DNA of 32,242 nt, taken from the NCBI GenBank assembly GCA_964413595.1, contig CAYPSR010000003.1:7950-40191 (forward strand). Reading direction: 5' to 3'. The position numbers and the translations under genes were made by a program. Of this stretch, positions 13,618-18,444 are shown piece by piece (the stretch's first letter is position 1; each line of letters starts with the position of its first letter). The stretch is from an uncultured Candidatus Saccharibacteria bacterium (GTDB lineage: Bacteria; Patescibacteriota; UBA1384; DATEAH01; CAYPSR01). The notes beneath the pieces are model-generated. The model was not told where the DNA came from, made no database searches, and was given only the letters and a program-made list of their open reading frames with translations.

Positions 13618-14910
13618 TTACTTTGTGCCGATTCTTGTCATTACTTCTTTAATTACAGATTCTGGTGCAAAATTAGGTTGACTGTTTGAATTAATAGCAA
13701 TTGGGTTTATTTTAAATGATTGTATTTGATTATAGTCAAAATTTATATTAAGAGTCAAGCCTTGCTGAGTTTCCTCTGACCAATATTGATCAAAAACAAA
13801 ATTGCCAAGTGAATAAAAAATAAGACCATTTTTATAATATTCAAAATCTTGGGCAACGTGTGGATGAGATCCAATTATCAAATCTGCGCCTGAATCTATC
13901 ATTTCATGTGCAAAATCTTCTTGGTCGGCTCTGTGTTTTGGTGTATATTCGGTGCCTGCGTGCATACTAATTACAGTCAGATTAGCGGTTTTTTTAGCAT
14001 TTTCAAGACCACGATTAATTAGTGCTATTTGTTGCCAAGAACAAAGTCCAGGATATTTGTCATCGGCTCGATATGAAACTGGTGTTGAGTCAACTCCATC
14101 AACTGCTAAAAACGCAATTTTTAAACCTTTCACATCTATTATTTTTGGTTCACAAGATGTTTTATTAGTTTCGCCCGCTCCGGTATAGCCAATTTCATTT
14201 TGAGTTAAAAGTTTCATTGTGTAGCTCATACCAGCGTTTTGTTGGTTTCCAAAATGATTATTTGCTAAAGATAAAACATCAAATCCGGCTGTTTTTAATC
14301 CTTCCACAGCCTTAGGTTCTGCTCCAAAAACCATGCCTGTATCTGTTGGTTGTGCAGTTTCTGAAAATGGTGACTCTAGATTTGCAAAAGCTACATCGTA
14401 TTGGGAAATTGTCTTTGCAAGATATTTAAATGGAATTTGATAATCGTTTAAATTTGCCATTTTTACGCCAACGTGGCGCGCAAGCATTATATCGCCTGCG
14501 GCAAACATATTCCAAGTATTTTGGCTATATTTTGATACTAATTTGTCAATTTTATTGGTTTTAAAGTTTAAGTAAACAGAATCGTACTTTCTAATATATT
14601 CGTAGTTTCCCTGGTTTTCATAAGAATTTAAATATAACTTTCCCACTTCCTGAGATTTATAGTTTGAAATTTTAGTTTTTGAAACAATAATGTCAGCATT
14701 GTTTTCTTCACTTTGAACTTGAATTTTTTGATTGTTTTCTGTTGCCCACTCTCGAATTTTCGTTTCATATGTTTCACCTAGGTTTTCAGAAATAAAAACT
14801 TTGTAGGCATTGTCTGCACCCGTGGCATTTTGATGTAGCTTATTGGGTTTTAAAAAATAAACCAAAATCGCTATAACTAAAATTGTGAGAATCAAATATC
14901 TAAGCTTCAT
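13618..14910 (-). CDS. CapA / PGA_cap family metallophosphatase-fold protein, membrane-anchored
   Basis: GDIML, NLESP, SLANNH, HAGTEY, GSHPHV, YSLGNFVFDQ; N-terminal hydrophobic helix. Confidence 0.93.
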   Translation of the reverse strand: MKLRYLILTILVIAILVYFLKPNKLHQNATGADNAYKVFISENLGETYETKIREWATENNQKIQVQSEENNADIIVSKTKISNYKSQEVGKLYLNSYENQGNYEYIRKYDSVYLNFKTNKIDKLVSKYSQNTWNMFAAGDIMLARHVGVKMANLNDYQIPFKYLAKTISQYDVAFANLESPFSETAQPTDTGMVFGAEPKAVEGLKTAGFDVLSLANNHFGNQQNAGMSYTMKLLTQNEIGYTGAGETNKTSCEPKIIDVKGLKIAFLAVDGVDSTPVSYRADDKYPGLCSWQQIALINRGLENAKKTANLTVISMHAGTEYTPKHRADQEDFAHEMIDSGADLIIGSHPHVAQDFEYYKNGLIFYSLGNFVFDQYWSEETQQGLTLNINFDYNQIQSFKINPIAINSNSQPNFAPESVIKEVMTRIGTK

Positions 14911-15232: not shown

Positions 15233-15760
15233 ATGTCTAAAACATTAAGTGTTTTAATAACTATCTTAGCTGTTGTAGTATTAGCTGGAATTGGTTATTA
15301 TTTTTTAAACCAAAACTTCCAGAATCAAAAAGATGATTTACAAGCTCAAATTACAGATTTACAATCTCAAGCAAAAACATCAGGTTCTTCTGCATCCGCA
15401 CCAGCCTTAGTTGATCAAGGTGACGGTATTACGGTATTAGAAACCAAAGAAGCAAAAGCAATTTGTAAAAGTCTTTATCCAGAATTAACTTATGTGTCCG
15501 AAATCAAAGACTCAATGGCTGCTAACTGTGGTATAAATAGAATTTATGGTGATTATGCAAAGGGCTTGTCCGGTAGCCAAGGTGCTGGTGCTAATTGGTT
15601 AGCAATAAAAACCAATAACAAGTGGAAAATAAAAACTATTTCACAAGCCGACTGGTTTTGCAACGAATTGCAAAAATATAACTTTCCGAGCGGAATACTT
15701 GGAAAAGATAGTGATGGCAAATGCTATAATGAAACCACAAATAAGCTAGAACTATATTAA
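15233..15760 (+). CDS. Hypothetical surface protein (N-terminal TM, short coiled coil, four Cys)
   Basis: GAGGG RBS, own promoter and terminator, hydrophobic N-terminus. Confidence 0.85.
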   Translation: MSKTLSVLITILAVVVLAGIGYYFLNQNFQNQKDDLQAQITDLQSQAKTSGSSASAPALVDQGDGITVLETKEAKAICKSLYPELTYVSEIKDSMAANCGINRIYGDYAKGLSGSQGAGANWLAIKTNNKWKIKTISQADWFCNELQKYNFPSGILGKDSDGKCYNETTNKLELY

Positions 15761-15780
15761 GCTTCATATTAATAAACATC

Positions 15781-15809
15781 AAAAGCCCGGTGTTTTTGCC
15801 GGGCTTTTT
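15781..15809 (+). terminator. Intrinsic terminator
   Basis: AAAAGCCCGG-N8-CCGGGCTTTTT directly after the stop codon. Confidence 0.85.
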
Positions 15810-15912
15810 GAATCTCAATAATTTTATAATTTACGACTGAATTACAATAAGATATCAACGATCAACGATATTTAGTTGTTTTCTAATTCAGTCATGAATA
15901 TTTTGCGGGGAC

Positions 15913-15941
15913 TTGACAAATATATCCATCCATGCTAAACT
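15913..15941 (+). promoter_or_regulatory. Sigma-70 promoter for transglycosylase gene
   Basis: TTGACA-17bp-TAAACT with TG extension. Confidence 0.8.
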
Positions 15942-15946
15942 AGTGA

Positions 15947-16094
15947 TGTTTTTGGGAAAAATAAGTATAAATTGAAGCTAATATAGCTTCATTTTTATTT
16001 AAGCACCATTGGCTTAAATAGGCTCGATTAATTGAGCTTTCGTCCCTAACGGGATATGTACTTACAGGAGGAATTTAAATATTGCCCAAAGACA
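15947..16094 (+). ncRNA. Candidate structured 5' leader RNA (multi-way junction)
   Basis: Six mutually compatible helices read from the sequence: two long-range stems enclosing four hairpins. It begins at the predicted transcription start. Confidence 0.6.
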
Positions 16095-16101
16095 AAAATG
16101 T

Positions 16102-16806
16102 ATGAAAAAAATCCTTATTGGATTTTTCATCTTCGCGGGATTAATTTCTTTAGCTGGAATCTTGCAATCAAAAGATACTGTAAAAAGACACGAAATTTCT
16201 TTAAACCTATCTTCAAGTTTTCCTTTAAAAACAGTTAAAGCAACAAAGTTAAAAAGAACTGAAATCAAATTTGGTAGTAAAAACACTCTAAAGATTGTTC
16301 GCAACAAAATTGAAATTGTTGCTGGACTTTCTAATGAGCAAATTGAACTTGCTAAAATCGCTGAATCTAAAAAAGCTAAGCAAACAGTAGTATTAAGTTA
16401 CACACCTGTTCCGGTTCAAGTAGCTGTTGTAACTTATGGTGGTAACTTTGATTCTTTGTATCAAGGAGCTGGTTCACAATATGGTGTTCCATGGCAGGTT
16501 TTGGCCGCCATTCACTCTGTTGAAACCGGACAATCTGGTGATACTTCTATTGGTTCATACGCTGGTGCTCAAGGTCCAATGCAATTTTTACCTTCAACAT
16601 GGAGGGCTTATGGGGTTGACGCTGATGGTGATGGAGTTGCTAGAATTACTTCTGTAGTTGATGCAATTTATGGCGCTGCTCACTACGTTTCTGCAAACAT
16701 GAGAACACGCGGTGGTTTAGTTGGTGGTATTTATGCATATAATCACTCGGGATCTTATGTAAACAAAGTTTTGTCTATTGCCAGATCTTGGGGATTTGCT
16801 GGATAA
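16102..16806 (+). CDS. Secreted lytic transglycosylase (SLT / lysozyme-like) domain protein
   Basis: Signal-like N-terminus; VPWQVLAAIHSVET (catalytic Glu), SYAGAQGPMQFLPSTW, DADGDG, AYNHS..YV. Confidence 0.92.
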   Translation: MKKILIGFFIFAGLISLAGILQSKDTVKRHEISLNLSSSFPLKTVKATKLKRTEIKFGSKNTLKIVRNKIEIVAGLSNEQIELAKIAESKKAKQTVVLSYTPVPVQVAVVTYGGNFDSLYQGAGSQYGVPWQVLAAIHSVETGQSGDTSIGSYAGAQGPMQFLPSTWRAYGVDADGDGVARITSVVDAIYGAAHYVSANMRTRGGLVGGIYAYNHSGSYVNKVLSIARSWGFAG

Positions 16807-16860
16807 TTGATGTAGATAATAAGTCATAAATAATAGATCAGAAAGAAAAATCTGACAAAG

Positions 16861-16889
16861 AAAACCCCCGCGTTCTTGCGGGGGTTTTT
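16861..16889 (+). terminator. Intrinsic (probably bidirectional) terminator
   Basis: AAAACCCCCGC-N7-GCGGGGGTTTTT between convergent genes. Confidence 0.88.
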
Positions 16890-16947
16890 GTATGGTGTTG
16901 TTTTGAACACATTCAATAAACCCAGTGTAAATCCAGTGAGAAATTTC

Positions 16948-17011: not shown

Positions 17012-17698
17012 TCATCTGTTTTGTATTTTGGCAATTGACATTATAAAAATCCATTTTATTGCATATAAAATTGCCACTACTATTAAAAATATTATCAATA
17101 GATTTACTGCCCATATTAAAGATGGCAAAATCATTAAAAAGTATGTTTGGGTAAATGTTACCCAGAAATACAAGAAAATCATGATTATCAGAAATAAAAT
17201 TAATCCTGCCCATGAAAGGCTTAGGTCTTGCTTGGAAGGTGCCATTGATGCCGCGATTGATAAAGATAAATATAGATACAAATATGTTAGCCATGAACTA
17301 TAGTTTAAAGACAAGAATATGTTTTTAATCTCTTTAAAAGATATAATTCCTTCTTGGCTAGCGAGTAAGTGGATATTAAATACTTTGTTTATTAAAAGCA
17401 AAACTGCGACTCCCACAATTATTGGCGCAAGTCCTATAATAATATTTGTAAAATTTGCTAGTTTTGGTTGAGAGTATTTAACTGATCCGCCCTTAGCATC
17501 AAAAATACGAAATTCTATAATTTTTCCACCAAAAATGAATGCAGTTAAAGCGTGCGCAGATTCATGGAGAAATATTCCAGGAGCTACAAAATATCTAAAT
17601 GCTTTCTCAGAAAAAACATAGGACAAAAAATATTCTACTGTAAATCCAAGCAGAAAGATTAAAAGAAATAAAAATATAAAATAATATATCGGAGACAT
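17012..17698 (-). CDS. M50B-like membrane zinc metallopeptidase
   Basis: PGIFLHESAH (HExxH), GGSV, IGLAP, MAPSKQD; multiple TM helices. Confidence 0.8.
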   Translation of the reverse strand: MSPIYYFIFLFLLIFLLGFTVEYFLSYVFSEKAFRYFVAPGIFLHESAHALTAFIFGGKIIEFRIFDAKGGSVKYSQPKLANFTNIIIGLAPIIVGVAVLLLINKVFNIHLLASQEGIISFKEIKNIFLSLNYSSWLTYLYLYLSLSIAASMAPSKQDLSLSWAGLILFLIIMIFLYFWVTFTQTYFLMILPSLIWAVNLLIIFLIVVAILYAIKWIFIMSIAKIQNR

Positions 17699-17844: not shown

Positions 17845-18444
17845 ATGAAAAAAGAAACTGAACAACCTGTTCTTGGTTCTCAGAAAAAAGAAAGAAAAAA
17901 GTTGGTTTGGTATCCTAACAGAAGGAGACTTAGTCAAAACGAAAGAGAGAAATTTTTATTTTATCAAAAGCCGATTATTCAGATCTTTTTAGCTTTTTGT
18001 CCAATTTTGGATGAAGATTGTTTTATGGAATATTATACGTTTGGTAGAATATTTTTACCGGGTCGAGCTAGCGTTCCAGAATTTATGCAAGTAAATGGGC
18101 CTACTGGCAATTTAATAAAAGCAGAAGAAGACACTGATAATTTTAGAGGTTTTGAGGAAACACATAGCTATTGGTATGAGTTATATATTCGGGAAGAATT
18201 TAAGTCTGGATTTGGTAGAATATCTTTTGCGGAACAAAAAATGATTGAATACGCTCAAACACAATTCAGAAATTATGGAGTTGAATTATATCATCGATAT
18301 GGATATAAAATGCATCCGCTTGATTTTTTTACTTATCATTATCGTCCAAGTCAGTATCCAGAAGATCGTCCTACCCTTGAAGGATGTGATAATTCCCAGA
18401 CTGAATATTTATCAGCACTTAGGGGCAAAAAAACTAACATTTAA
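17845..18444 (+). CDS. Hypothetical protein
   Basis: 199-aa ORF in AT-rich context; no motif recognised. Confidence 0.7.
   Translation: MKKETEQPVLGSQKKERKKLVWYPNRRRLSQNEREKFLFYQKPIIQIFLAFCPILDEDCFMEYYTFGRIFLPGRASVPEFMQVNGPTGNLIKAEEDTDNFRGFEETHSYWYELYIREEFKSGFGRISFAEQKMIEYAQTQFRNYGVELYHRYGYKMHPLDFFTYHYRPSQYPEDRPTLEGCDNSQTEYLSALRGKKTNI

Follow-up and report, generated by a model that had tools for sequence, protein, structure and literature searches.

A structured 5' leader upstream of a lytic transglycosylase gene in a Candidatus Saccharibacteria bacterium, probably a new cis-regulatory RNA element

The window, that is, the whole 32,242-nt stretch analyzed here (all coordinates are window positions), belongs to contig CAYPSR010000003.1 (assembly GCA_964413595.1) of an uncultured Candidatus Saccharibacteria bacterium, an ultra-small lake bacterium with a genome of 980 kb in 102 contigs and 32.5% G+C. 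A leader at 15947-16105 lies between an open reading frame (ORF) of 175 amino acids of no known family and the ORF of a 234-amino-acid lytic transglycosylase of the SLT family. This leader folds into a stable, multi-branched structure, which is conserved with compensatory changes in the two other genomes of the order, named here G001 and G002. It is a real and new family of structured cis-regulatory leader, of thin comparative depth, and probably a new RNA element controlling the amount of enzyme made. As to how it works, we give an even chance to a lineage-specific, cis-acting translational gate that would also act as a 5' shield of the lytic transglycosylase mRNA.

Fold and setting of the leader

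The + strand of 15947-16105 was folded without constraints, and its minimum free energy (MFE) structure was the same as the centroid and as the fold drawn in a preliminary description of this DNA, all of whose helices were recovered at their positions and nested. Helix P2 lies within helix P1 and closes a five-way junction with four hairpins (H1 to H4). The energy of the leader was -46.7 kcal/mol, compared with -27.3 ± 3.6 kcal/mol for 200 dinucleotide shuffles (z -5.34), none of which was as stable; the comparison with shuffles proposed earlier thus came out in favor of a real structure. When the folded stretch was lengthened to 16140, including 35 nt of coding sequence, the same fold was obtained (z -4.92) together with an A-U hairpin holding the AUG. 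The minus strand folded with -37.8 kcal/mol (z -4.42), the + strand being 9 kcal/mol more stable because of its G-U pairs, as the preliminary description had anticipated. The parts of the locus are the following:

15913-15941, + strand: promoter-like site, with -35 TTGACA (15913-18), a 17-nt spacer with TG at 15933-34 and -10 TAAACT (15936-41); score 10/12
15947-15956, + strand: P1 5' strand UGUUUUUGGG, predicted 5' end of the transcript (MFE, centroid)
15957-15961, + strand: A-run joining P1 and P2, AAAAA (4-6 A in the orthologues), read from the sequence
15962-15969, + strand: P2 5' strand (MFE, centroid)
15973-15991, + strand: hairpin H1, UGAAGCUA-AUA-UAGCUUCA, arms 15973-80/15984-91 (MFE, centroid)
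15992-16000, + strand: U-run UUUUUAUUU directly after H1; H1 plus UUUUUAUUU is terminator-like (terminator scan)
15996-16020, + strand: hairpin H2, arms 15996-16004/16012-20 (MFE, centroid)
16021-16038, + strand: hairpin H3, arms 16021-27/16032-38 (MFE, centroid)
16042-16055, + strand: hairpin H4, arms 16042-46/16051-55 (MFE, centroid)
16057-16064, + strand: P2 3' strand (MFE, centroid)
16065-16084, + strand: 20-nt single-stranded junction with the only AGGAGG (16066-71), ending in AUUG (unpaired in MFE and centroid)
16085-16094, + strand: P1 3' strand CCCAAAGACA, 7 nt before the ATG at 16102 (MFE, centroid)
16102-16130, + strand: A-U-rich hairpin with the annotated start codon, arms 16102-14/16120-30 (-7.7 kcal/mol, z -2.4)
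16102-16806, + strand: the regulated gene, coding for a 234-amino-acid membrane-anchored SLT_2/SLT lytic transglycosylase (ORF and Pfam)

The A-U hairpin at 16102-16130 has no counterpart in G001 or G002, and its membership in the leader element is therefore doubtful. The genome contains the leader only once. Within the leader no tRNA or tmRNA-like gene was found, and a repeat or mobile element was ruled out by its single copy and by a repeat scan.

The product of ORF 16102-16806 matches PF13406 (SLT_2, 3.6e-17) and PF01464 (SLT, 9.9e-09) and has an N-terminal hydrophobic anchor, which bears out the earlier view of a structured + strand leader placed before a lytic transglycosylase. The protein has 1508 homologues, the close ones sharing the N-terminus MKKIL; named homologues come from Patescibacteria, including Berkelbacteria and Doudnabacteria, and the closest proteins, P0002 (79% identical) and P0003 (75%), come from metagenomes. 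The promoter layout of the window recurs in G001 and G002 as TTGAC(T), 17 nt and an (extended) -10 box, 5-6 nt before P1. Judging from the promoter-like site, transcription is predicted to start at about 15947.

Conservation in two orthologous leaders and comparison with known families

Besides the genome of the window, the collection searched contains two of the same order, each with an SLT orthologue of 50-51% protein identity. A BLASTN comparison of the leader with 60 relatives gave chance matches only, the best with E ~1e-3 over 26 nt. When folded alone, the two orthologous leaders nevertheless yielded P1-closed structures, of -34.0 kcal/mol in G001 (z -3.3, 1/200 shuffles as stable) and -43.7 kcal/mol in G002 (z -5.5, 0/200). 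All three leaders share one order of elements: promoter, P1 5' strand, A-run, a GARGCUA hairpin, GGAGG, AUU(U)G, P1 3' strand and ATG.

The preliminary description had proposed that orthologous leaders be compared for covariation; in the two other genomes P1, P2, H1 and the junction GGAGG are indeed kept with compensatory changes. The 5' strand of P1 reads UGUUUUUAGG in G001 and GUCUUUGG in G002, beginning 5-6 nt past the -10 box, and its 3' strand reads CCUAAAAACA and CCAAAGGC, respectively, ending 9 and 12 nt before the ATG (7 nt in the window). Across G001 and G002, two of the ten P1 pairs are changed on both sides and one on one side. In all three orthologues an AUU(U)G lies 8-13 nt past GGAGG and borders directly on the P1 3' strand. 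In G001, P2 persists through compensatory changes, and G002 has an analogous helix stacked on H1. The most conserved inner element is H1, whose stem is GAGGCUA/UAGCCUC in G001 and GAAGCUA/UAGCUUC in G002, with changes on both sides in 2/8 pairs; the U-run that follows it is found in the window and in G002 (UUUUUAGUUU) and is absent directly after H1 in G001. At the position of H2 both genomes have a shorter hairpin.

We also built a covariance model from the window sequence alone (R1) and ran it on the loci with filters off. On 10.8 kb of the three loci R1 found the G001 leader with 39.2 bits (E 2.5e-7), the best unrelated match having 15.4 bits, and the G002 leader with a marginal 18.3 bits (E 0.012); both matches sit exactly before the orthologous SLT genes. 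Among 105 SLT-upstream loci (54 kb) from the class and beyond, the only matches above noise other than the window itself were again G001 (E 1.2e-6) and G002 (E 0.061). A whole-genome search of 151 genomes returned the window and two weak matches (E 0.05 and 0.9); since it missed the 39-bit G001 leader its negatives are unreliable, and its lack of matches over many genomes does not mean absence. At two further Patescibacteria loci (L032 and L033) no window-type leader was found upstream, by eye or with R1, and a third (L034) is the same place as G132 and carries the type A leader described below.

In the alignment of the three sequences fitted with the model, 96.2% of the cells pair, compared with 89.0 ± 1.9% in shuffled alignments (0/500 reaching it) and no more than 51.5% with slid partners; changes on both sides affect eight pairs, two in each of P1, P2, H1 and H2. 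That the structure exceeds chance rests on the z-scores and on the conservation in two orthologous loci. The leader extends from promoter to start codon, on the coding strand, with compensatory changes among three genomes in the model-fitted alignment, as is proper to a structured cis-regulatory 5' leader.

No Rfam family matched the leader. A cmscan of the whole window against Rfam 15, which we take to include the lysM-TM7, lysM-Actino, lysM-Prevotella and M23 motifs, gave no match at gathering score; the same was true of 20 loci including G001 and G002, and of 20 type A loci. At E <= 10 the region 15750-16250 had 34 matches, all far below threshold, with none to c-di-AMP/ydaO, lysM, M23 or any other riboswitch or wall-hydrolase motif among them; the best, the enterobacterial small RNA STnc420 (22.9 bits against a gathering score of 70), really covers the start-codon A-U hairpin. 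The earlier statement that the consensus of the c-di-AMP riboswitch on rpfA could not be recognized is in agreement with these results. The c-di-AMP riboswitch (ydaO-yuaA), found before rpfA and other wall hydrolase genes, resembles the window leader in its length and in a closing helix near the expression platform; however, it has a pseudo-two-fold symmetric architecture and conserved cores that were not seen in the window leader, whose inner junction is variable.

According to Weinberg et al. 2017 (PMC5737381), lysM-TM7, lysM-Actino, lysM-Prevotella and M23 are orphan cis-regulatory candidates in 5' untranslated regions of wall-degrading enzyme genes; they have no known ligand, and the authors saw no c-di-AMP binding. 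The lysM-TM7 motif is of TM7/Saccharibacteria origin, that is, from the same phylum-level radiation as the window, but the domains encoded downstream of these motifs are LysM and M23 peptidase, whereas the window leader precedes an SLT gene and is far larger and multi-branched. The YjbJ motif, listed as weak riboswitch candidate WRC-39-1 before a streptococcal lytic transglycosylase (PMC11109978), differs from the window leader in that it is a small motif of Streptococcus only, with no relationship in sequence, while the window has its Shine-Dalgarno (SD)-like sequence inside the structure, 30 nt from the AUG. Full-text literature searches on riboswitches, lytic transglycosylases and Patescibacteria, and on the lysM motifs, gave no description of this leader. 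A review presents Patescibacteria lytic transglycosylases as proposed tools for breaching host envelopes and, in the parts that touch on riboswitches, names these only as future engineering parts (PMC11665869).

A possible translational gate and its alternatives

The sole AGGAGG (16066-71) lies between P2 and P1, exactly 30 nt before the ATG at 16102, as had been noticed before. A split ribosome-binding site was considered and rejected for the window, no hairpin bridging GGAGG and AUG without P1 in any of the three leaders (z -0.2 to -0.6). Because of the 30-nt gap and the lack of such a hairpin, AGGAGG cannot directly serve the AUG at 16102, and three start scenarios remain: AUU at 16081, UUG at 16082 and the annotated, SD-less AUG at 16102. 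The ATT at 16081-83 is in frame with the ATG in the three genomes, 21, 24 and 24 nt upstream of it, and frame 0 is the longest frame open upstream (22, 19 and 26 codons, as compared with 0-18 in the other frames).

In the mechanism that we favor, P1 would clamp the first ten bases of the transcript onto the ten bases between the GGAGG...AUUG segment and the annotated AUG, P1 and P2 together enclosing a variable set of hairpins. Once folded, P1 would cover ground needed by the 30S subunit, from +4 to +13 for a start at AUU 16081 or UUG 16082 and from -17 to -8 for the AUG at 16102; as its 3' strand falls inside the 30S footprint in every start scenario, P1 would have to open for initiation. The AGGAGG exposed in the 20-nt junction may be either the true ribosome-binding site or a standby site holding a waiting 30S subunit. 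Structured initiation regions with ribosome standby occur in E. coli tisB and in the MS2 coat gene, and an inhibitory leader precedes the phage lysis gene e of T4; the likeness lies in a stable structure that hides the start, a nearby single strand on which the 30S subunit can wait and the tight dosing of a lytic enzyme, an analogy without homology, standby binding at the window leader being putative. The fully paired 5' end would in addition shield the mRNA from 5'-end-dependent decay, and a paired 5' end is the one trait common to the window leader and the 5' hairpins found across the class. As a net result, the wall-cutting enzyme would be made in small, tightly limited amounts unless conditions released its synthesis, possibly through a ligand, a protein or temperature. 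Given that SLT orthologues throughout the class have long structured leaders, one type of which covaries, RNA-level control looks like a general theme.

Several observations weigh against this reading. There is no sign that the structure switches. The inner architecture differs among the three leaders, the window having four inner hairpins, G001 two and G002 two that are stacked differently, and H3 and H4 belong to the window only, without counterpart in G001 or G002; thus, the five-way junction of the preliminary description is present in the window fold but is specific to this genome. The R1 match to the G002 leader was marginal, as said, and with only three sequences in an alignment fitted to the structure the pairing figure is inflated; an independent MAFFT/RNAalifold analysis of the three leaders misaligned their 3' halves and recovered neither P1 nor P2, and is uninformative. 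Regarding the start codon, AUU is a rare initiator, which counts against its use, and the spacing from AGGAGG to AUU or UUG (9-10 nt in the window, 13-14 nt in G002) is poor. A GGAG or GAGG within 20 nt of the first start was found in 125/718 long ORFs of the genome, usually spaced by 4-7 nt and by 9-10 nt in 8 of those 125; SD-bearing starts being so few, an SD-less AUG at 16102 would be ordinary. In the window and in G002, though not in G001, the TTG (16082-84 in the window) opens an upstream ORF of seven codons with a stop that overlaps the ATG. Finally, promoter-like sites around the leader (9) are no commoner than in shuffles (6.8 ± 2.4), so the transcription start is a prediction, and no RNA run containing the leader sequence was found among public runs.

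A simpler account, unlikely in our view, is that the leader is a pure 5' stabilizer whose paired 5' end and compact fold keep 5'-end-dependent ribonucleases from degrading a highly transcribed mRNA, with neither gating nor switching. Stem-loops at the 5' end are known to stabilize bacterial mRNAs, examples being the leaders of ompA in E. coli and of ermC and aprE in B. subtilis. In each of the three genomes P1 starts at the predicted +1, and a paired 5' end is the sole feature common to all leader types; in the class to which the order belongs (162 genomes, 105 of them with an SLT orthologue at E <= 1e-25; upstream DNA of 100 compared) a strict scan found a hairpin plus U-tract starting at most 25 nt from the -10 box in 61/93 promoter-bearing loci, compared with 93/2057 random positions. 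A simple 5' hairpin would suffice for this purpose, however, and a stabilizer leaves unexplained both the conserved single-stranded GGAGG and a partner strand located 140 nt away, between GGAGG-AUUG and the start codon. That partner strand, which lies between GGAGG-AUUG and ATG in the three genomes, makes the expression platform overlap the closing helix, and a multi-helix junction closed by such a P1 is the classic layout of a riboswitch; here the P1/P2 junction would bind a small molecule (a cyclic dinucleotide, a cell-wall precursor or other), stabilizing or releasing P1 to set translation. Unpaired conserved blocks (A-run, GGAGG, AUUG) also fit a true riboswitch, as does the class of gene, which is under known or candidate riboswitches (c-di-AMP; lysM-TM7, lysM-Actino, lysM-Prevotella and M23, PMC5737381) and includes the streptococcal lytic transglycosylase preceded by the YjbJ motif (PMC11109978). 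We nevertheless consider it quite unlikely: while P1, P2, H1, the A-run, GGAGG and AUUG are kept, the number and geometry of the junction helices vary among the three orthologues (inner hairpins 4, 2 and 2), no conserved purine-rich core is seen besides the SD-like sequence, no Rfam riboswitch matches even at E <= 10 and three sequences are too few to define a binding pocket. The riboswitch-like character assumed in the preliminary description is therefore not supported, the inner junction lacking the conserved architecture of a ligand-binding core and the three sequences offering no clue to a ligand. The host- or self-lytic role that it considered for the enzyme is putative.

Transcription attenuation, with H1 and its U-run (15973-16000) as a leader terminator and the surrounding helices setting read-through, appears very unlikely. 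H1 plus UUUUUAUUU was called terminator-like, G002 has the same hairpin with UUUUUAGUUU, and no feature is more common among the SLT leaders of the class than a hairpin with a U-tract; on the other hand, G001 is without a U-run directly after H1, H1 contains only 3 G-C pairs, the A-rich 5' flank pairs with the U-run (12-nt inverted repeat), and no upstream anti-terminator is possible before H1, since RNA polymerase reaches the partners of the P1 and P2 5' strands only once the U-run has been made. We regard as most improbable that the leader has no function, being a by-product of inverted repeats in low-G+C intergenic DNA whose likeness among three leaders is residual homology. Such an origin would be consistent with a sample of three related genomes, with the variation of the inner hairpins and with a minus strand that is also strong, as expected of DNA inverted repeats; it is at odds with proteins only ~50% identical and a blank BLASTN, in spite of which P1, P2, H1 and GGAGG-AUUG persist with both-side changes, with the 9 kcal/mol that G-U pairs give to the + strand and with the fact that the element always abuts promoter and start codon.

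A bolder extension of the gate, tentative and in our opinion unlikely, is that the leader is one of several unrelated-looking, clade-specific sensor RNAs placed before the same SLT gene throughout the class, which would couple the enzyme to a signal (host contact, a muropeptide or a nucleotide second messenger), in this case through a P1 spanning 140 nt that hides the landing zone behind an exposed SD and an AUU start. The bacteria of this class are ultra-small and probably host-attached; if true, the proposal would mean a riboswitch-like class that is new and whose expression platform is unusual.

The genomes of Patescibacteria are tiny and contain few recognizable regulators, and an elaborate, conserved SLT leader suggests that these organisms exert important control by dosing a dangerous enzyme at the RNA level; about 100 orthologues in the class with long, clade-specific leaders, at least one type of which covaries strongly, point the same way. 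These leaders are concrete short RNAs (~90-160 nt) for probing and ligand screens and could supply native regulatory parts for a group without inducible expression tools. The window leader also raises a question on start codons, that is, AUU or UUG behind a distant SD versus an SD-less AUG.

SLT leaders across the class and surroundings of the locus

Almost all SLT loci of the class have a near-consensus promoter and a long leader. The promoter-proximal hairpin plus U-tract mentioned above is absent at that place in the order of the window. In most leaders of loci L119-L218 it occupies the first 25-45 nt past the -10 box, at the predicted transcription start, as a stem of 8-12 bp followed by UUUUUU(A/G)AUU; in many cases the 5' arm of the stem is rich in pyrimidines and the 3' arm rich in purines and SD-like. 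It may be a promoter-proximal terminator, a 5' stabilizer or something else. Downstream of it, on the 3' side, the leaders are clade-specific.

One of them, the unnamed SLT leader of families f28 and f38 (type A; ~85-140 nt, ending ~25 nt into the SLT ORF), was modeled iteratively (models R2 and R3). R3 finds it in 26/103 loci at E <= 0.03 (L123, L140, L149, L154, L155, L159-L161, L165, L167, L171, L175-L177, L179-L182, L185, L187, L188, L191, L206, L210, L214 and L216); a single copy, located at the SLT locus, was seen in 5/5 whole genomes, with one extra match at E 0.54. In an alignment of 25 sequences 86.9% of the cells pair, compared with 73.8 ± 1.3% when shuffled (0/500) and at most 54.8% with slid partners, and changes on both sides, in 71 cells, occur in 12/17 pairs. 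For 12 type A seeds aligned with MAFFT, RNAalifold predicted no pairs, owing to register shifts. Its layout is AGG, P1 (UCUGG/CCAGA), an AAUAAG junction, P2, a loop with a conserved CUGAAU, a CGAAAU junction and AUG. AGG/GAG stands 5' of P1, and an invariant AUG 8-9 nt 3' of it, followed by a hairpin whose arms covary through codons 2-7. Folding of the type A P1 would bring AGG to a normal SD distance from the AUG.

Type A and the window leader share the gene, the class and a strong promoter, and the long-range P1 of type A ends 8-9 nt before the AUG. By eye, UCUGG-AAUAAG ... CCAGAC-AAAAUC-AUG of type A resembles GGG-AAAAAUAAG ... CCCAAAGAC-AAAAAUGU-AUG of the window, with a GG-(A)AUAAG junction and an A-rich linker in common. 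They differ in that the AGG/GAG of type A lies 5' of P1 and its domain is preceded by a separate hairpin with a U-tract, whereas the window has GGAGG inside and P1 at the 5' end. R3 had no match at E <= 1 to the leaders of the window, G001 and G002 (L115-L117), the sole match in L115 being elsewhere (E 0.64), and R1 had none to the type A loci; homology between type A and the window leader is therefore not supported.

Other clades show further conserved, clade-specific leader blocks before this gene. The f16 leaders (L129, L131, L134, L135, L137, L141, L156 and L173) have UUCUG(U/G)GCGCAAG, a hairpin, CGAACGCCAGAAU and ACGUAC-AUG, with no SD. In f32 leaders (L122, L139, L144 and others) a long-range helix AAUCCUUAA/UUAAGGAU would sequester the SD, and f5 leaders (L174, L192, L194, L198, L201 and L207) have a conserved block CGAACCCCGGUUAAUACCCGG-N-GCAGUAGC.

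As to the surroundings of the window leader, contigs of four lake-water runs over 15700-16900 cover it partly and at low depth, and no variant was seen within 15947-16105 away from contig ends; both data are too thin for use. The ORFs at 15233-15760 (175 amino acids, with an N-terminal anchor) and 17845-18444 (199 amino acids) had no Pfam match at E <= 1e-3. A 60-amino-acid ORF at 16056-16238 and a minus-strand ORF of 81 amino acids at 16062-16307, both overlapping the SLT frame, were rejected for want of support. The neighbors on the minus strand are a PGA_cap/CapA-like protein (13618-14910) and an M50B-like membrane peptidase (17012-17698). A 10-bp, G+C-rich hairpin with A- and T-runs on its flanks lies at 15781-15808, 20 nt past the stop of the 175-amino-acid ORF. 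It resembles an intrinsic terminator working in both directions, in which case the SLT gene would form its own transcription unit.

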